From assembly GCA_963921275.4 (NCBI GenBank), contig OZ001293.3:5024001-5088000 (forward strand): DNA of 64,000 nucleotides. Direction: 5' to 3'. The notes beneath the pieces are model-generated. The model was not told where the DNA came from. It saw only the letters and a program-made list of their open reading frames with translations, and did not search any database. The stretch is from an uncultured Hormoscilla sp. GTDB taxonomy: Bacteria; Cyanobacteriota; Cyanobacteriia; Cyanobacteriales; Desertifilaceae. Of this stretch, positions 241 through 62,494 are shown one piece after another; position 1 is the first letter of the stretch; the number at the start of each line of letters is the position of its first letter. Both the position numbers and the translations under genes were made by a program.

Positions 241-255
241 ACCGTTCCGGAAAAA
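241..255 (-). mobile_element. 15-nt micro-insertion, variant E (TTTTTCCGGAACGGT)
   Basis: Exact second copy at 58577-58591. Both follow CCGA on the minus strand and contain a CCG-GAA-CGG mini-hairpin. Confidence 0.6.
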
Positions 256-475: not shown

Positions 476-713
476 GTCATTGCGAGGGGGGGGTACCGTG
501 GCGATTAACTTATGCTCAAGCGAGTTAACCCCCCCCGAAGCAATCCCCCTCGCCCTGTATGAGATGAAGATCATGCGCGGCGTCGTCGGTGAGATTGCTA
601 GCCCTCCTGGCGTCGGGCCGCTGCGAAGGCCGGGGGGATCATCGCTTGGAGCCCTAAAATGTCAGTTTTAATTTCCCCCTGGCTCCGGACAGATTGTTAA
701 CCGAGAAGTATTG
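476..713. repeat. REP/MITE-like palindromic repeat (GTCATTGCGAG...GAAGCAATC...GAGATTGCT) carrying a variant-B micro-insertion
   Basis: Related inverted copy at ~24505-24795 and partial copy at ~26485-26600. Confidence 0.55.
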
Positions 714-11362: not shown

Positions 11363-13775
11363 TCACTTCCACTCCCGCACTTCGGGCATATCCTGACCGT
11401 GCTTTGCGATATAATGCTTGTGTTCGATCAGCCGATCGCGGATATTCTGTTTAGCATAAGCAGCAGCATATCCCAATTGGGGCACCCGATCGATCGCATC
11501 CGCCGCTAGGTGAAAGCGATCAAGGTCATTGCGGACGACCATATCAAAGGGAGTAGTAGTAGTACCCTCTTCCTTATAGCCTCGGACATGGAGATTTTGG
11601 TGGTTAGTCCGGCGATAGGTAAGGCGATGGATCAGCCAGGGATAGCCGTGATAGACGAAGACGATCGGTTTATCAGTAGTAAAGATAGTATCGAAGTCTC
11701 GATCGGACAGACCGTGGGGATGTTCGCTTTGAGGTTGCAGGGTCATCAAGTCAACCACATTCACCACGCGGATCTTCAGTTCCTGAAATTGTTGACGGAG
11801 AAAGTCCACTGCTGCTAGAGTTTCCAAGGTAGGAACATCCCCAGCGCAAGCCATCACCACATCGGGTTCCGAACCCTGGTCGTTACTGGCCCATTCCCAA
11901 ATGCCAATTCCAGCAGTACAATGCTCCATCGCCGCCTTCATGTCCAGGTATTGTAAGGAGGGTTGCTTACCCGCGACAATTACATTCACATAGTTGCGGC
12001 TCCGCAGACAATGGTCGGTCACGGACAGGAGAGTATTAGTATCAGGGGGTAGGTAAACCCGAATCACGTCCGCCTTCTTGTTGATTACGTGATCGATAAA
12101 GCCAGGGTCTTGGTGGGAAAAGCCATTGTGGTCTTGTCGCCAGACATGGGAAGTCAGCAGGTAGTTCAGAGAGGCGATCGGGCGACGCCAAGGAATTTCG
12201 TTGCGAGTAGTTTTCAGCCACTTAGCATGTTGGTTAAACATGGAGTCGATCAGGTGAATGAACGCCTCGTAGCAGGAGAAGAAGCCGTGGCGACCGGTGA
12301 GGAGATAGCCTTCCAGCCAGCCTTGGCAGGTATGTTCGCTGAGAATTTCCATCACCCGACCGTTGCTAGCCAGGTGGTCGTCTTCGGGGAGAAAATCAGC
12401 TACCCAGGTGCGATCGGTGGCTTCAAACAGGGCGCTGAGACGGTTAGAAGCAGTTTCGTCGGGACCGAACACCCGGAAGTTGGTCATGTTTTGCTTCATC
12501 ACGTTCCGCATAAAACCTCCCATGACTCGGATGGCTATGGCTGCGCCACGCTGCGCGATCGGCGAAGGTGGTGGCTGGTTTGGAGACTTCGATCCCATAG
12601 TCCCGGAAGTCGGGCATTTTCAAGTCCCTCAGCAGGATGCCACCGTTAGCGTGGGGGTTGGCACCCATGCGCCGACCGCCCTTGGGTGCCAGTTCTGCCA
12701 ATTCTGGAATTAATGTGCCATTCTCGTCAAAGAGTTCTTCGGGTTTGTAACTCTTCATCCAGTCTTCCAGCAGTTGGACGTTTACTGGTTTCGTTGCCAT
12801 TTCCGAGAACGGTACTTGGTGACTGCGCCAGTAATCTTCCGTTTTCTTGCCATCCACTTCCTTGGGACCTGTCCAACCCTTGGGCGATCGCAAGACAATC
12901 ATCGGCCATTGGGGGCGCTGGGTAAAGCCCTTGCGGCGGGCATCCTGCTGAATGGCTTTGATATCTGCGATCGCCCGTTCCAGGGTGGCCGCCATCAACT
13001 GGTGCATAGTTTCCGGGTCGGACCCCTCAACAAAATAGGGTTTATAACCGTAACCGACAAACAAGCTTTCCAACTCTGAATGGGAGATCCGGGCCAAAAC
13101 CGTAGGATTAGCAATTTTATAGCCATTCAGGTGTAAAATGGGCAGGACCGCACCATCATGAACCGGGTTAAGGAACTTATTAGAATGCCAACTGGTAGCC
13201 AGGGGACCAGTTTCCGCCTCCCCGTCACCAACAACGCAAGCAACGATCAAGTCCGGGTTATCGAAAGCAGCGCCATAAGCATGAGAAAGAGCATAACCCA
13301 GTTCGCCCCCCTCGTGGATAGAACCCGGGGTTTCCGGGGCTACGTGACTGGGGATCCCGCCGGGGAAAGAGAACTGCTTGAAAAGTTTCTTCATCCCCTC
13401 AGCATCCTGGGAAATATTCGGGTAAACTTCAGTGTAAGTACCCTCCAGGTAAGTATTAGCAACCAACCCGGGACCGCCATGACCCGGACCTGCAATATAG
13501 ATAATATTCAGGTCTAGAGCCTTAATCATCCGGTTGAGGTGAACGTAGATAAAATTAAGACCTGGAGTAGTGCCCCAATGTCCCAACAGCCGAGGTTTAA
13601 CATGTTCTAGTTTCAGAGATTCTTTGAGCAGGGGGTTGTCAAACAGATAAATTTGTCCCACCGAAAGGTAGTTCGCCGCCCGCCAGTAAGCATTCATCGA
13701 GCGCAACTCTTCTGGGGCGAGGGTTTTTTCTGAAGTTATCGCCGTAGCTATGGGTCTTTCCGTTGTAACTGTCAT
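11363..13775 (-). pseudogene. xfp: Phosphoketolase, frameshifted by a 22-nt insertion
   Basis: [16 protein letters not shown] and [17 protein letters not shown] motifs are split over two frames. Removing 12537-12558 restores ...[13 protein letters not shown]. Confidence 0.92.
12537..12558 (-). mobile_element. 22-nt micro-insertion, variant A (TCGCGCAGCGTGGCGCAGCCAT)
   Basis: Other copies at 14436-14457 and 24540-24561; all lie in a CCGW^AGC context. Confidence 0.85.
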
Positions 13776-16370: not shown

Positions 16371-17738
16371 GGGTGCATCTCAGTTAGGCGATGAGTATAT
16401 TTACTCAGCAAAAGTGGATTTACTGAGTCTGATTAGGCAACTAATGCGCCATTCAGGTAGGCACAGCGATGCTTCAACACCTACGGTCCGCGGACGGCCC
16501 GAAAAATCGGCACATTCTCGGCTCGCCATTGTGCCCCCGGTAATTTCACCCTTAACCCAATTTGTTTCACCAGGGACTCAACCCGACCAGAGCCAATCGA
16601 GTGCCGAGCTGCCTGCCCGTTCGCGCAGCGGCCCGACGCCAGGAGGGCTAGCCTGGTAGTCAATGATGCGCGTCTGATGGTGCTTCAAGTAGTTGATCAA
16701 CCCTGTGGCTCCCCGACATTGCTGTTGGCGCAGATAACTAATCGCCCTCTGGGTCTCCCCTCGCCACAGGAGTGCACGGTCCGCGGACGGCCCGAAAAAT
16801 CGGATCTGCACGGTCCGCGGACGGCCCGAAAAATCGGATTGAGCCGGTGTCCCTTGCACCTTATTGGCATTTTCCATTAGGTGATACCAATCGAGCACTT
16901 CGATACGTTGTTCTGGTGTCCCGATACCACTGAAAATGTTCCACACCCCATCATGACCATCTCCGAGACCGGTGAACTGCGCCCCGAGGGGCTGGGCATT
17001 CACCCACTCAAGCAGCCCTTGATTATCCTTGAAGAAAGCCACACTGCCTTGCTCATGGACATTTAAGGCTTTGTATTCTCGCCACTCACCAGGTTGACCC
17101 TCCACGGTCCGCGGACGGCCCGAAAAATCGGTACGAAGGCGAATCATGCCGCCATCCAAGCTGAGCTCCTGAATCGGTTCAGCTATCTCTACCTCAGACC
17201 AGTCCTCTCGTTGAACAAAGCGTTGGAGCGTACTGTGGGAGATGCTCACCCCAGTCAGCATCGCGAGATCTTGTACGGTCCGCGGACGGCCCGAAAAATC
17301 GGCTCTCTGGTAAGAGGCATTGGCACTGACGACCCAACAACATTTTTCCACATACGGACTCCAACGAGTTCCCGGTTTAACTTGCAGTTGTTGGGCTTGA
17401 GCAGTGGTGAGGGTTAGTTTGCCCAGGATACTGGTCAGGGTGCGCTGTTTTCCGGTGCGGCGGGAAGTCGCCGTGTTGATAAAAAAATTCCTAGTTGAGG
17501 CCAGACGTGTTCTTGGGCAAGCGCACGAACGTTTTTCTCAATGCCTTCAAGGGTGGTGAGTTCAGTGGGGTCGGCTTCCTGGTAGAGAATCGCGGCAATC
17601 GCGTCAAGATGTTGCTGGAGTTCAGCCTGCTTTTGGGAGTTCATGGGTCAAGGGTGGTCAACAGTGCCTAAATTATGTACCGTTTTGAGGGAGACAAGCA
17701 CTATGTATAATTACTCATTGCCTAACTGAGATGTACCC
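16371..17738 (-). mobile_element. ISKra4-family IS, degenerate, carrying six micro-insertions
   Basis: TIRs GGGTGCATCTCAGTTAGGC / GCCTAACTGAGATGTACCC; 8-bp TSD GAGATCTT; LGDGHDGVW, LDWYHL and SIGSGRVES motifs. Confidence 0.88.
16483..17298 (-). mobile_element. Five exact 24-nt micro-insertions (variant C) at 16483, 16776, 16810, 17104 and 17275, plus a 29-nt variant B at 16621-16649
   Basis: TTTTTCGGGCCGTCCGCGGACCGT follows CCGA each time. Removal gives transposase-like YQRAEQD, RLRTEEG, QSEQIRALL and ENVPKVLK. Confidence 0.92.
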
Positions 17739-26018: not shown

Positions 26019-26197
26019 GCAGCTACCACCGCCGCCCTCACCCTAAGGGGCTACACGAACAAAGCCCGCCTGCGCGGGCTAGATTACTTGCATCGAGATG
26101 TTCCCCTAGGATTCGTTTTTCAGAGTATATCCCTGAACTTCGATATCAGGTCGCAATTTCACTTCAATTCGAGTTCTAGTCTGCTCAATATCAGGTG

Positions 26198-26479: not shown

Positions 26480-26875
26480 TTAAGTTAACCCCCCCGTAGC
26501 GCTGCGCGCACTTCGTAAAAGCGCAGCGGCCCGACGCTAGGAGGGCTAGCAATCTCACCGACGAAGCAGGAGCGCTCTTGATCTAATACGGGGCGGGGGG
26601 ATGGTGGGCGGTGCCCTACATCTATTTGCTCTTTCCTCGATATGCGATCGCCATGCTCGTGGGCGGTGCCTACATCTAATTGCACTTTTCCCGAGATCCG
26701 ATCGCGATGCAGTCTCGCCCCATTACATTATCAAAGAATGCGACAAAATTCCGATCGTATTTGCTCTCCCTCCCCAGATTACCCTGGAATAACAGGTAAA
26801 TTATTATACTTTTACACCCAATTGCCTCAAAATAAAGTCAAATCAAAATAGCGCTCAATCTAGGAGAGATAATTA

Positions 26876-58360: not shown

Positions 58361-59731
58361 GTGGAAGTGGTCGTTACTGGCATTTGTCTGGTGTCAGCTT
58401 TAGGGATGCTACAGACCAGTTGGCAGCGCCTGATCGCTGGTGAATCTGGCATCAGGCTTTCACAACCTTTTCGGGAACTGCCACCACGACCTCTGGCCCT
58501 AATTGGCAAAACTCCGATGTATCCTGGTGCTGCATCTCCTGGGAGCTTGATGTCCCCCGGACGCACTTCGATGCCTACCGTTCCGGAAAAATCGGGATGC
58601 TACGCTGCGCGAAAAATCGCAAAAACCTACGATGCCTTCCGGACGCACGGCGAAAACCCGGAAGGCATCGCTCAGACATCGTCGAAACCCGGGGGACATC
58701 ATCTGAGCACTACCCAGGAGATGCAGTGCGCTAATCCCACAACCCAGGATACCTCGGCAGCTGACTTAACTACTCTCACTCAGCTGGTGGTGACCGAGGC
58801 GATCGCCGATGCAGGTCTAGTCCTACCATTGCCAGATGCTGGGGTGGCGATCGGGTCTAGTCGCGCTCATCAGGCTTCCTGGGAACAGCTAGCTAGACAA
58901 TTACAAGAGGATTCTCTCATGTCCGGTGCCCATTGGTTGGATACCCTTCCGCATATGGTGGCGATCGCCTCGGCCCGGACGATCGGCTCTACTGGTCCGG
59001 TGTTAGCGCCAATGGCTGCTTGTGCTACGGGCCTCTGGGCGATCGCCCAAGGCTTCCATCTGATCCAGACTGGTCAATGCCAGCGGGCTATCGCCGGGGC
59101 AGTGGAAGCTCCGGTGACGCCCTTAACCCTGGCAGGCTTTACCCGGATGGGAGCCTTAGCTGCCACTGGTGCCTATCCTTTTGACAAAAATCGCGAAGGT
59201 TTGGTTTTGGGGGAGGGTGCAGCTGTCTTGGTGCTGGAGTCAGCAACGGTAGCTAGGCGTCGCGGAGCCCCTATTTATGGACGAGTGCTCGGGTTTGGCT
59301 TGACAAATGATGGTTATCATGCTATTGCGCCCCAACTGGGAGGCAAGAGAGCGATCGGGGCTGTGAAGCAATGTCTGGAGCGATCGGGCCTGGAGACAGC
59401 TGACATTGACTACATCCATGCTCACGGCACCAGTACGAGGTTGAATGACCAGAACGAAGCAAAATTAATTCAATATTTATTTCCTCAAGGCGTTCCTGTC
59501 AGTTCCACCAAGGGAGCTACAGGTCACAGCCTGGGAGCATCTGGGGCCTTGGGAGTAGCTTTCTGTCTGATGGCGTTACAGGAGCAGCTATTGCCCCCTT
59601 GTGTAGGATTGAAAGCACCAGAGTTTGATTTAGATTTACTGATGGCACCGCGTCGGTGTCAGGTGCGGCGAGTGCTGTGTTTGAGTTTTGGCTTTGGGGG
59701 CCAAAATGGGGCGATCGTCTTAGGAAAGTAA
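58361..59731 (+). CDS. Beta-ketoacyl-ACP synthase (FabF-like) with an ~81-aa repeat-derived insertion
   Basis: [23 protein letters not shown] and SFGFGG motifs all intact. Confidence 0.88.
   Translation: MEVVVTGICLVSALGMLQTSWQRLIAGESGIRLSQPFRELPPRPLALIGKTPMYPGAASPGSLMSPGRTSMPTVPEKSGCYAARKIAKTYDAFRTHGENPEGIAQTSSKPGGHHLSTTQEMQCANPTTQDTSAADLTTLTQLVVTEAIADAGLVLPLPDAGVAIGSSRAHQASWEQLARQLQEDSLMSGAHWLDTLPHMVAIASARTIGSTGPVLAPMAACATGLWAIAQGFHLIQTGQCQRAIAGAVEAPVTPLTLAGFTRMGALAATGAYPFDKNREGLVLGEGAAVLVLESATVARRRGAPIYGRVLGFGLTNDGYHAIAPQLGGKRAIGAVKQCLERSGLETADIDYIHAHGTSTRLNDQNEAKLIQYLFPQGVPVSSTKGATGHSLGASGALGVAFCLMALQEQLLPPCVGLKAPEFDLDLLMAPRRCQVRRVLCLSFGFGGQNGAIVLGK
58514..58759. repeat. Four-level nested hairpin repeat plus two 15-nt micro-insertions, in frame
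   Basis: Arm pairs: CCGATGTATCCTGG/CCAGGATACCTCGG, CTGCATCTCCTGGG/CCCAGGAGATGCAG, GATGTCCCCCGG/CCGGGGGACATC, CGATGCCTTCCGG/CCGGAAGGCATCG. Confidence 0.85.
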
Positions 59732-59775
59732 GTAAGATAAATGTGTTATACTGCTGAAAAAAGAGGAGTCATTTT

Positions 59776-59997
59776 ATGCTAAAGACACATAGACAAAAAG
59801 CGATAATCCAGTCCGGAGGTGTGATAAGTATTAGCTCGCCAGAACTTCCAGCTGGTACGATAGCAGAGGTGATTGTGATTGTGGATGCATCGATTGAAGA
59901 GCCTAAAAAGTCCTTAACTAGCTTCATTGGGGCTGGTAAAGGTAGTTTGGCAACGCCAGAAGAAGCTGATGATTTTATCCGTCAACTGCGAGGATAA
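59776..59997 (+). CDS. Probable antitoxin, followed by a PIN toxin remnant (59997-60110)
   Basis: SFIGAGKGSLATPEEADDFIRQ; next ORF reads RVYQDTNIWIY then stops. Confidence 0.65.
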   Translation: MLKTHRQKAIIQSGGVISISSPELPAGTIAEVIVIVDASIEEPKKSLTSFIGAGKGSLATPEEADDFIRQLRG

Positions 59998-60110
59998 TGA
60001 ATATCTTAAACGCTATCCAGGGAAGGCGGGTGTATCAAGATACCAACATCTGGATTTATACCTGAGAAGAATATCCGACCTTTGTCACTGATTTAAGGGA
60101 ATTATTTCAA

Positions 60111-60570
60111 ATTTATGGACGAGTGCTCGGGTTTGGCTTGACAAATGATGGTTATCATGATAACGCGCCCGAACTGGGAGGGAAGAGGGCGATCGCAGCT
60201 GTCAAGCAATGTCTGGAGCGATCGGGCCTGGAGAGAGCTGACATTGACTACATCCATGCTCACGGCACCAGTACGAGGGAATGACCAGAACGAAGCAAAA
60301 TTAATTCAATATTATTTCCTCAAGGCGTTCCTGTCAGTTCCACCAAGGGAGCTACAGGTCACAGCCTGGGAGCATCTGGGGCCTTGGGAGTAGCTTTCTG
60401 TCTGATGGCGTTACAGGAGCAGCTATTGCCCCTTTGTGTAGGATTGAAAAGCACCAGAGTTTGATTTAGATTTACTGATGGCACCGCGTCGGTGTCAGGT
60501 GCGGCGGGTGCTGTGTTTGAGTTTTGGCTTTGGGGGCCAGAATGGGGCGATCGTCTTAGGAAAGTAAGTA
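60111..60570 (+). pseudogene. Frameshifted duplicate of the fabF-like 3' end (59273-59735)
   Basis: Near-identical direct repeat with several indels. Confidence 0.9.
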
Positions 60571-60675
60571 AACGTTCCTTACAGACAATTTATTTATCTT
60601 TAGAAGCAACCGCGCTTACTTATTTTTTCCATCGTTTTGAGAATAAATAAAAATCACGAAATTTAGAGGAGGCAA

Positions 60676-61368
60676 GTCATTCTCATTCAGTTTACAGATT
60701 TCAACGCTGCTTGTACTATCATCAGTACCGACTGCAATTCTCAATGGAACGATATTAGCAATGTACTCGATGCTATGCCACTACACCTAAAAGCTTCATC
60801 CCAGGCGGGACTTCAAGGCTATCCCATTTTCGATCCTGTAGGAACGAATGAATACATCAAAACCGAATTAGTTAACCTGGGATGGGAACCGAATAGTCCC
60901 ATTCCCAAACAATACAATTTTTTAGGAACCCATATTGATGCTGGTAAAGCAGGCGCGATCGTCGAGAATCAATTTTCCAACTATCCGTTTCTTCTCAATA
61001 ATACCATAAGATCCGATTTTTCGGGCCGTCCGCGGACCGTGCTTTTCTTTAACGCTGAGACCATGTTTTCTGGGTCAGCCACTAAACTGGTAATTATTAT
61101 CACAAAAGCTCATATGTTTCCTGCTTCTAACAGCACTCTATATTACGAACAAGCTGTCAACTGGTTGACAGCATTAGCTCAATATAATGTATTTGATGTA
61201 CCAATACGACTTGTGGGGTTGTTTGCACCGCAAAATTATACTGTATCTGTAAAATGGACTGTGTACCAGGCACAACGATCAAGAACTGTGATCGCGCAAC
61301 AAAATCGCCAATGCCAAATCATTTCCGGAACTAGACCTGACAGTCGTTGTGTTCTGAATTTACTCTAG
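60676..61368 (+). CDS. BglII-like type II restriction endonuclease, probably inactive
   Basis: MPLHLKAS, IFDPVGTN, QFSNYPFLLNNTIRS, HMFPASNS.LYYEQA and YNVFDVPIRLVGL match R.BglII as recalled. 24-nt insertion at 61017-61040. No canonical start codon after the RBS. Confidence 0.8.
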   Translation, partial: VILIQFTDFNAACTIISTDCNSQWNDISNVLDAMPLHLKASSQAGLQGYPIFDPVGTNEYIKTELVNLGWEPNSPIPKQYNFLGTHIDAGKAGAIVENQFSNYPFLLNNTIRSDFSGRPRTVLFFNAETMFSGSATKLVIIITKAHMFPASNSTLYYEQAVNWLTALAQYNVFDVPIRLVGLFAPQNYTVSVKWTVYQAQRSRTVIAQQNRQCQIISGTRPDSRCVLNLL

Positions 61369-61384
61369 CAACAATAGGTTAATT

Positions 61385-62494
61385 CTACAAGTCAAGCTCC
61401 AGTTGCTGATTTTTCGGGCCGTCCGCGGACCGTGCAACTTGAGTTTTTTCTGGTGTCTTTTTTCCCTTTCCATTCAGCGTAGAATCTACTGGACGTTCTT
61501 CCCCTCGTAAATCAGCAGCAAAGGCTGCTTCTTCATAATATAATCTTTCTTCCATTTCCTGCAAGTGGTATTCTTCTGGGTATATCTTTGCCTTTGAACG
61601 TTCCGACGGTCTTTTCCCAATTTGGACGTCAAACCGGAATTTATCAATAGGTTCACCCGTTCTTTCTATGTAGTTTCGCAAGGTTTTCAAGTTTGGAAAA
61701 CATCCATTTTCATCTGGTTCACCACTCAGACGCCGCATCGCTATTTGATGATAGGTTGGATTCATTTCTGCACCGATAAAATGTCGTTCCCAGTCTCTGG
61801 CAACAACTGCTACTGTACCAGCCCCCATATAGGGATCGAAAACTACTTCATTTTTGTAAGTTGTTGCTAAAATAATTCTCGCTATCAAGTCTTCTGGAAA
61901 TTGACAAGGATAAATTGTTTGTTCTTCGTGGTTGTGTTTGACATTCGAAAATAACCAGATATCCCCAGGATTTTTTCCCTTTGGGTTACAAGATAGTTGA
62001 CCTTTGCGATCTCCTCGGTAATGTTTTTTATTCTGGTATTTCTGCGGTACTCTAATCTCATCTAGATTAAAGGTATAGTCTTTAGATTTCGTAAACCACA
62101 AAATTGTTTCGTGGCGACAGGAAAATTTATTTTGCGCGTGCAGTTCATGTTGTCTAGCCCAAATAATCCGGTTTCTGGGAATTAATCCACAAGATTCTAT
62201 AATTGGGAAAAAGCGGATATCTAAGGGAATTAACATTCCCCGATCTGAAAAAGCCCCTATTTGCAAAAATAGCGCTCCAGTCTGTTTGAGAATTCTGCTA
62301 CATTCTTTTAGGACAATAGTCTGTTCTCTTAAATAATTATCCAATGCTTGCTTAGCTTCGTATTCCTTACCTAAATTATAACGTGGCGAGGAGACAACTA
62401 AGTCCACACACTCATCAGGTAATTCTTTGAGTACATTCAAGCAATTTCCTAGAAATATTTTGTCCAGCGGTAGTTTTTCTTTATCCATCGTCAT
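61385..62494 (-). CDS. Beta-class N4/N6 DNA methyltransferase, cognate of the BglII-like enzyme
   Basis: Motif IV reads SPRY (SPPY expected); motif I FDPYMGAGT; 24-nt insertion at 61410-61433. Confidence 0.85.
   Translation of the reverse strand: MTMDKEKLPLDKIFLGNCLNVLKELPDECVDLVVSSPRYNLGKEYEAKQALDNYLREQTIVLKECSRILKQTGALFLQIGAFSDRGMLIPLDIRFFPIIESCGLIPRNRIIWARQHELHAQNKFSCRHETILWFTKSKDYTFNLDEIRVPQKYQNKKHYRGDRKGQLSCNPKGKNPGDIWLFSNVKHNHEEQTIYPCQFPEDLIARIILATTYKNEVVFDPYMGAGTVAVVARDWERHFIGAEMNPTYHQIAMRRLSGEPDENGCFPNLKTLRNYIERTGEPIDKFRFDVQIGKRPSERSKAKIYPEEYHLQEMEERLYYEEAAFAADLRGEERPVDSTLNGKGKKTPEKTQVARSADGPKNQQLELDL

Follow-up and report, generated by a model that had tools for sequence, protein, structure and literature searches.

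A family of exact 24-nucleotide insertions in Hormoscilla that resembles the small dispersed repeats of Nostoc

The small dispersed repeats (SDRs) of Nostoc punctiforme and its relatives are reportedly 21-27 nt in length. The hairpin-dependent IS200/IS605 transposons characteristically insert 3' of a particular tetra- or pentanucleotide and show neither target duplication nor terminal inverted repeats, while the Rickettsia palindromic elements (RPEs), palindromic selfish DNA of roughly 100-150 nt, lie in frame within protein genes, including essential ones, of a host-associated bacterium. According to the accessible part of Xu et al. (2018), Elhai proposed in 2008 that HIP1 is the insertion site of SDR5 in the Nostocaceae, and SDR-like repeats had not been found outside this family. 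The part of Elhai (2015) available to us places SDR5 precisely between nucleotides 3 and 4 of HIP1, GCG^ATCGC (here and below ^ marks the point of insertion). How SDRs move has been an open question since 2008, and a 2026 paper in Genome Biology and Evolution (GBE), as far as its accessible text goes, still describes SDR5 as a 21-nt sequence of unknown function. Here we describe a 24-nt sequence, TTTTTCGGGCCGTCCGCGGACCGT (the 24-mer), in a 64-kb stretch of DNA from an uncultured Hormoscilla sp. (contig OZ001293.3, positions 5,024,001 to 5,088,000; hereafter the window), which is best filed with the Nostoc SDRs and would in part work like SDR5, the likeness being drawn from published descriptions and not from SDR sequence.

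Insertions in the window and their empty homologues

The 24-mer occurs as seven exact matches in the window, where none is expected, and no additional match was found in the window at up to 3 mismatches or, in 100 shuffles, at all (Table 1). The seven places, and a preceding CCGA at six of them and CTGA at one, are as given in an initial annotation of this DNA; the site with CTGA is 61410. Base -1 is always A, the 3' flank varies (+1 is G at five sites and A at two) and target duplication is absent at all seven copies.

Five copies lie in an ISKra4-family transposase pseudogene. A search returned 234 homologues of this protein. Fifteen homologues without the element were aligned together with P0001, a deposited protein of 99% identity that has it. 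In this alignment the four copies in the main open reading frame (ORF) appear as 8-residue insertions, or as 16 residues for the adjacent pair. At copy 1 the eight residues are absent from 10 of 10 covering homologues, with Glu at the junction in eight of them (RAE^QD or RAE^ED). The closest homologues read RLRTE^EG at copy 2, where all covering sequences apart from P0001 lack the insert. Copies 3 and 4 are spanned by a 16-residue gap in the homologues, their removal restoring AQxEQIRALLW, and a paralogue from Hormoscilla GUM202 (P0032) reads PAQGEQIRALLW in this region. At copy 5 the final T of the element and the flanking AG form a TAG stop, so that the C-terminus of the transposase is lost: the ORF at 16481..16663 terminates in ...AENVPIFRAVRGP*, homologues read on as ENVPKVLKHRCAYLNGA, and the insertion turns ENVP^KVLKHRCAYLNGA into ENVPIFRAVRGP followed by the stop. 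The copy at 61017 coincides exactly with an 8-residue gap in the alignment with BglII (1d2i, E=1.4e-54), which reads NNTVRSEL^F.

Homologues are thus empty at six of the seven window sites (five in ISKra4 transposases, one in BglII), always in the register CCGA^R, and they bear out the five protein readings that the initial annotation had judged plausible upon removal of the element. The alternative register, in which the empty site would be CCGT, is excluded at these six sites because the junction codon is Glu. At the seventh, the orthologous position in Hormoscilla GM7CHS1pb is likewise occupied and no empty allele was found.

The pseudogene is a hot spot. Five of its six CCGA^R sites on the sense strand hold a copy, the orientation being uniform, as against none of three on the antisense strand, while elsewhere in the window one of 213 such sites is occupied (Fisher p=1.7e-7). 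The sample of Hormoscilla loci described below contains no further copies of the window's insertion sequence (IS), and a transposase search among longer proteins found nothing.

Table 1. Positions of the elements and their host genes in the window
Feature	Position	Strand	Remarks
24-nt copy 1	17275..17298	-	in ISKra4 transposase; encodes DFSGRPRT; target GCCGA^A; exact match
24-nt copy 2	17104..17127	-	in transposase; encodes DFSGRPRT; target ACCGA^G; exact match
24-nt copy 3	16810..16833	-	in transposase; encodes DFSGRPRT; target TCCGA^G; exact match
24-nt copy 4	16776..16799	-	10 nt from copy 3; different frame (FFGPSADR); target TCCGA^G; exact match
24-nt copy 5	16483..16506	-	in transposase; read as IFRAVRGP; target GCCGA^A; exact match
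24-nt copy	61017..61040	+	in BglII-like endonuclease ORF; DFSGRPRT; target TCCGA^G; exact match
24-nt copy	61410..61433	+	after CTGA; antisense in C-terminal tail of N6/N4 DNA methyltransferase ORF
ISKra4-family transposase pseudogene	16400..17650	-	hosts five copies; broken by frameshift and stop; NCBIfam transpos_ISKra4, E=7.8e-32
BglII-like endonuclease ORF	60775..61368	+	hosts 61017 copy
DNA methyltransferase ORF (PF01555)	61385..62494	-	hosts 61410 copy
15-nt sister element TTTTTCCGGAACGGT	241..255	-	after CCGA, before A
15-nt sister element	58577..58591	-	inside ~245-nt palindromic insertion in ketosynthase gene
Unrelated ~30-nt small repeat GCTAGCCCTCCTGGCGTCGGGCCGCTGCG...	16615..16652	-	between DYQA and QAARHSIGSG in ISKra4 transposase

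Two forms, their targets and a 15-nucleotide sister family

With a 21-base core as query, a scan that covered one genome for each species listed 113 stretches, 108 loci being kept, and among the matches listed all 108 come from four Hormoscilla assemblies: GM7CHS1pb, SP12CHS1, GUM202 and a sediment metagenome-assembled genome. Merging these loci gave 96 pieces totalling 1.15 Mb (1.22 Mb with the window), and all copy counts drawn from this sample are lower bounds. Together with the window it holds at least 167 matches at up to 4 mismatches, including at least 62 exact copies that end in T (the T-form) and at least 66 that end in A (the A-form), the two forms differing only in this last base. 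The window itself is ~98% identical to, and collinear with, GM7CHS1pb over 57.6-64 kb. A search of PLSDB with a tandem copy returned only chance GC-rich matches (E>=2), and an Rfam scan of the window gave nothing at the element sites. A subfamily of 10-11 copies has its mismatched hairpin bases swapped (G9/A20 to A9/G20), the mismatch being kept and not repaired to a pair.

The bias towards CCGA or CTGA seen by the initial annotation is shared by the T-form copies of this sample. Among the 62 T-form copies, the 5' flank has T at -5 in 35, C at -4 in 61, C (51) or T (10) at -3, G at -2 in 61 and A at -1 in all; 3' of the element purines occupy +1 in 60, +2 in 40 and +3 in 51 copies, with no clear bias at +4. 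The 66 A-form copies show C (26) or T (24) at -5, C (45), T (11) or G (8) at -4, C at -3 in 63, G at -2 in 62 and A at -1 throughout, followed by T at +1 in 64, C at +2 in 63, G at +3 in 57 and C at +4 in 46. The T-form target is therefore (T)C[CT]GA followed by a purine, and the A-form sits inside CGA^TCG or half-HIP1 sites. Relative to their share of all NCGATCGN sites, the A-form occupies true HIP1 too rarely (33% of this background, seven copies) and CCGATCGC/GCGATCGG too often (22%, 28 copies); at the latter sites the T-run lies on the CCGA side in 28 copies and on the other side in none. The window is rich in HIP1, with 68 GCGATCGC and 204 CGATCG, yet all seven of its copies are of the T-form.

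Empty alleles were sought for 166 copies. Candidates were found for 23, of which 13 gave usable 24-nt gaps, two compared tandem with single copies and eight were too divergent. The eight empty alleles of T-ending copies read CTGA^A, CTGA^G, CCGA^A (four times), CAGA^A and CCGT^G, such that seven of the eight fit C[CTA]GA^R; those of the five A-ending copies are CCGATCGG, GCGATCGC (locus h46, a perfect HIP1), GCGA^GCA, CCGATTGG and CCGCG^TCGAG. As at the window sites, the empty alleles confirmed the claimed absence of target duplication. One tandem polymorphism consists of two copies in RFFC02000005 against a single copy in JACOMV010000062, which represents a different species. Copies are also nested: the complementary strand of one copy, where it reads CCGA^AAAA, has received another, which generates inverted composites. 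Mobility is indicated by the alleles with and without the element, by the insertion of copies into each other and by the tandem copies. There are no shortened copies, as 142 of 143 5' halves are followed by a complete 3' half.

Counting of k-mers in a sample that had not been selected for it uncovered a second, 15-nt family, TTTTTCCGGAACGGT, with 61 matches. Its flanks (T at -5 in 36, C at -4 in 57, C in 46 or T in 11 at -3, G at -2 in 58, A at -1 in 59 and purine at +1 in 56) match the T-form profile, and its last base is T in 56. The sister element starts with a T5 run and ends in T, with a 3-bp GC stem and its GAA loop between them, and carries TCCGG, not TCGG. The T-run common to both families is complementary, allowing G.T wobble, to the purine-rich positions +1 to +3 of the target and to the element's own best target. 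Nine Hormoscilla orthologues of an acidic repeat protein contain two 5-residue presence/absence blocks that lie exactly at the two sister copies (ELWS[DFSGT]V versus ELWSE, and GSD[TVPKK]SEW versus GSDSEW). Searches of the PDB with two host proteins of the sister family gave no matches. The sister 15-mer extends SDR-type elements to a smaller size, with the same target (TC[CT]GA^R) and ends; to our knowledge no mobile unit as short as 15 nt has been published.

With respect to coding context, none of the six frames of the 24-mer contains a stop codon. Open frames of at least 150 aa hold 79 of 134 copies (59%), compared with 71% of random positions. Two reading frames, which give DFSGRPRT or IGPRTARK, account for 48 of 78 copies in long ORFs, although each of the six frames is represented, either orientation occurs and some copies lie in non-coding DNA. 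The frame bias can be attributed to the codon frame of the target and to stop creation, since the T-form generates a stop wherever the frame reads T followed by AG, AA or GA; none of the 42 T-form copies in long ORFs lies in such a frame. Copies persist in frame, as eight codons, in housekeeping genes, the hosts including PolA, DnaX, DnaK, DnaJ, aspartate kinase, DXP synthase, PBP2, TamB and COX2. In PolA of two Hormoscilla species (L041 and L076) a common antisense copy, read as RSVRGRPE, directly follows the DTETT ExoI motif and leaves the frame open, and one of the two species has a further, sense copy. Orthologous copies differ at 1.3% of positions as against 3.0% in their own flanks, but this comparison is biased towards conservation and provides no conservation signal.

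How the elements may be moved

We consider it reasonably probable, if some way from assured, that the 24-mer is a non-autonomous, SDR-type micro-insertion element of Hormoscilla, and that it and the 15-mer are moved in trans by a single enzyme that reads their architecture. The 24-mer enters DNA as an exact 24-nt unit without target duplication, in the register proposed by the initial annotation: when it ends in T, it stands between (T)C[CT]GA on its 5' side and a purine, and when it ends in A, it stands in the middle of CGA^TCG or a half-HIP1 site. The enzyme, which neither family encodes, may recognize the T5 run, the short GC hairpin and the terminal T, and would make a precise cut and join 3' of C[CT]GA. 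Since the two families have target and termini in common but differ in hairpin sequence, it is likely that one trans-acting factor reads the architecture of both. It had been suggested that the element may find its target through pairing of its TCGG with CCGA. This does not hold as a general rule, since the sister family, which has no TCGG, retains the TC[CT]GA^R target, including C or T at -3; it is more likely that the left half of the target is read by the shared factor. In inserting 3' of a fixed short word with no duplication, and in having a hairpin, the elements resemble the units moved by HUH/Y1 single-strand transposition, and our preferred guess is a strand-transfer enzyme that recognizes hairpins in single-stranded DNA, HUH/Y1-like in its logic although not demonstrably in its family. 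The class of the enzyme is indeed a guess, and only a trans-acting, hairpin-recognizing enzyme is upheld, because the HUH model and the reverse transcriptase (RT) model considered below each have points against them. It is possible, although we hold it to be rather doubtful, that Hormoscilla harbours a hitherto undescribed insertion system in which one trans-acting enzyme, or an enzyme-guide complex, pastes hairpin oligonucleotides of 15 nt or more scar-free after TC[CT]GA^R and into HIP1-like sites. If so, the 15-mer would be the smallest mobile DNA known, and the two families, the self-targeting and the covariation of last and next base would offer handles on the machinery that also moves the Nostoc SDRs.

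Several observations weigh against an enzyme of this kind. No candidate for it was found in the 64-kb window, in agreement with the initial description of the element as non-autonomous and without a cognate enzyme there, and no gene family recurs among the 957 ORFs within 2 kb of copies. A tblastn search with E. coli RayT against the 1.22-Mb sample (~1.2 Mb of four genomes) gave a best E value of 0.18. Each element has one hairpin, where IS200/IS605 has two subterminal ones, and the hairpin is no more stable than those of shuffled sequences (z=-1.5, with 14 of 200 shuffles as good). Neighbouring copies within 5 kb are in the same orientation in 18 cases and in opposite orientations in 19 (8 and 6 in the sister family), contrary to the concordance predicted for lagging-strand-specific insertion of the IS200/IS605 type; orientation and GC skew are weakly associated (44 versus 69, p=0.02). 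The last base covaries with the next, A standing before T in 64 of 66 copies and T before a purine in 60 of 62, which no simple cut-and-paste model explains. It should also be emphasized that the copies are not independent, as they include 16 orthologue pairs, and at least nine T-form copies lie inside one larger palindromic repeat. Finally, at loci h46, h131, h117 and h156 the four nucleotides to the left read CCGA in the occupied allele only, and the empty allele at h145 is CCGT, as would be left by slippage between the two CCG triplets.

These last loci favour movement with no dedicated enzyme, in which existing copies would spread by microhomology-mediated template switching or gene conversion during replication or repair, by means of the CCG(A/T) that is repeated at either end. 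The limits of the A-form read CCGA(T)...CCGA(T), and the tandem copies in RFFC02000005 against the single one in JACOMV010000062 are also what such a process would give. However, terminal direct repeats are lacking in T-form copies that follow CTGA (10 of 62) and in the sister family (CCGA...CGGT); the strong preferences at -5 (T) and at +1 and +3 (purine, a bias for which binomial p values were obtained) lie outside any microhomology; and hundreds of identical ectopic events on 3-4 nt of homology would be unprecedented, such that we view this process as improbable. A little less improbable, but still unlikely, is RNA-templated insertion, by target-primed reverse transcription or a flap resembling that of prime editing, in which a nick after CCGA would prime copying of a short transcript of an existing copy, from the strand ending in ...CCCGAAAAA-UCGG, by one of the genome's many RTs. 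The complementary strand of both families ends in A5 followed by TCGG, the complement of the target, and the window contains two RT-maturase-HNH ORFs and at least six matches to group II intron domains 5/6. The position of the A-form in CGA^TCG(C) would be explained by this model, because a cDNA flap made from its flanks (CCGA...CCGA^TCGC) would match HIP1-like targets in sequence, and the tolerated variants (T at -3, G or A at +1 to +3) resemble wobble pairs. Opposed to it are the absence of shortened copies, the fixed length of the A/T run with its sharp boundaries, and the fact that the sister family keeps C or T at -3 although it has no G with which to wobble.

It could be argued, alternatively, that the copies are not selfish DNA but a selected functional module, either a peptide tag (DFSGRPRT or IGPRTARK) or a DNA site, containing CCGCGG and CGGWCCG, that is bound by a protein or methylase. 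The dominance of two frames in long ORFs, the PolA copies common to two species and a core that is a 10-bp palindrome, GTCCGCGGAC, could be read in this way. The spread of copies over all six frames, both orientations and non-coding DNA, the stop codon that one of them generates in the IS of the window, and the failure of orthologous copies to be better conserved than their flanks argue against it, and we attach very little probability to this possibility. An artefact of assembly, adapters or contamination would, like genuine copies, be base-identical; it is effectively excluded, our estimate of its likelihood being close to nil, because the element is present in four independent assemblies besides the window, at orthologous positions with diverged flanks, with point variants and in deposited proteins such as P0001, which has a substituted copy reading DFTGRPRT.

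Comparison with described elements, and other repeats

The kinship with Nostoc SDRs that the initial annotation pointed to is supported by what is described of SDR5, which inserts precisely into HIP1 according to the available part of the literature, the A-form sitting in CGA^TCG. Like SDRs, the 24-mer is tens of nucleotides long, dispersed, near-identical between copies, devoid of coding capacity and precisely inserted. Its length, the seven exact copies in the window and at least 128 exact copies of both forms in 1.22 Mb agree with the small size and the dispersed, near-identical copies described for SDRs, and 13 usable empty alleles, empty protein homologues and the polymorphism of the sister family agree with their mobility. 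Relative to known SDRs the lineage, the target class and, through the 15-mer, the size are new. Thus, the host belongs to Hormoscilla (Oscillatoriales, Gomontiellaceae), in contrast with the confinement to Nostocaceae stated in the accessible part of Xu et al. (2018); the 24-mer is longer than SDR5 as described in the accessible part of the 2026 paper (24 versus 21 nt); and, unlike SDR5, it also uses targets of another class, C[CT]GA^R, which are not HIP1. At 15 nt, the sister family falls below the range that is reported for SDRs. The A-form lies in NCGA^TCGN, where the register is ambiguous by CGAT, and GCG^ATCG is one of five equivalent readings and hence compatible with the SDR5 site, as far as that site is described in the part of Elhai (2015) available to us. 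Only 7 of the 66 A-form copies lie in true GCGATCGC and 28 in CCGATCGC, one empty allele (h46) is a perfect HIP1, and the window copies are all of the T-form. In 200 kb of the N. punctiforme plasmid pNPUN01 no SDR-like family was found, the top repeats being TPR/CHAT gene repeats and Tn7 ends. A literature search, poor in subscription journals, found no description of the 24-nt element, and the main text of the Hormoscilla genome papers does not mention it.

Other classes of short element share some of these features. Repetitive extragenic palindromes (REPs) and their inverted pairs (REPINs) likewise have a short hairpin, GC-rich and imperfect, preceded by a conserved single-stranded 5' lead, and are non-autonomous, multicopy and found as inverted pairs. 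REPs, however, are extragenic, whereas most Hormoscilla copies are within ORFs; a gene for a REP-associated tyrosine transposase (RAYT) flanked by copies was not found in the ~1.2-Mb sample of four genomes; and the Hormoscilla element inserts precisely at a defined 5-6-nt target. With IS200/IS605 and its miniature derivatives, the palindrome-associated transposable elements (PATEs), the element shares insertion 3' of a fixed word without target duplication, but it has one hairpin in 15-24 nt in place of two subterminal hairpins in more than 100 nt, copies lying near one another do not agree in orientation, and TnpA was not seen in the window or among the neighbouring ORFs. Miniature inverted-repeat transposable elements (MITEs) are defined by terminal inverted repeats and target-site duplication, and no duplication accompanies the T-form or the sister family. 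The in-frame insertion into coding genes recalls RPEs, as these are generally described, from which the Hormoscilla elements differ in their length of 15-24 nt and their defined target.

The Hormoscilla elements offer a second, unrelated lineage in which two families reside together, alike in target and ends but not in hairpin sequence. The sharp target, nested self-insertions and many gain and loss alleles between sequenced strains make it practical to look for the enzyme by comparison and to attempt reconstitution. Essential proteins of this uncultured symbiont of sponges are lengthened by eight or five residues through the copies, one copy adjoining the ExoI motif of PolA, which bears on annotation, on the calling of pseudogenes and on protein evolution, and they are convenient strain markers.

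Other repeats were encountered in the course of this analysis. The ISKra4 transposase contains, in addition to its five copies of the 24-mer, a ~31-nt insertion of the GCTAGCCCTCCTGGCGTCGGGCCGCTGCG repeat, which causes the transposase frameshift and is separate from the 24-nt family; this repeat is also present at 597-625 (+) and 26521-26550 (-) of the window and at two JACOMV loci. A ~80-nt palindromic repeat (...GTGTCCAGAGACGCCCACCC...GGGTGGGCG...), found at many loci including L009 9850-10500 and L003 17230-17330, often has a T-form copy in one arm, at a constant position. It is either a composite that has spread with a passenger copy or a preferred insertion target, and the idea that this larger palindrome is a master element was rejected, as it carries a passenger copy or is an insertion hot spot. 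At 26058-26081 (+) of the window, a match to the Rfam family 'CRISPR-DR28' corresponds to a dispersed hairpin repeat, TAGCCCGCGCAGGCGGGCTTTGTT, with at least 32 matches in the sample and conserved longer flanks. Its interpretation as a CRISPR array was likewise rejected, as the repeat is dispersed with conserved flanks and looks REP-like or terminator-like.

The genome from which the window derives looks degraded. The phosphoketolase gene is split (11363-13775), genes for Uma2, a kinase and a Na/H exchanger are fragmentary, and GyrB carries an intein. The ketosynthase gene contains a ~245-nt palindromic, MITE-like insertion (58512-58759) that is absent from GM7CHS1pb (JACONN010000002.1), which has two other small insertions nearby that the window lacks. 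A 1.38-kb segment at 59736-61117, which includes the N-terminal half of the BglII-like gene as well as 469 nt duplicated from the 3' end of the ketosynthase gene, is also absent from GM7CHS1pb and was either gained by the window or lost by GM7CHS1pb.

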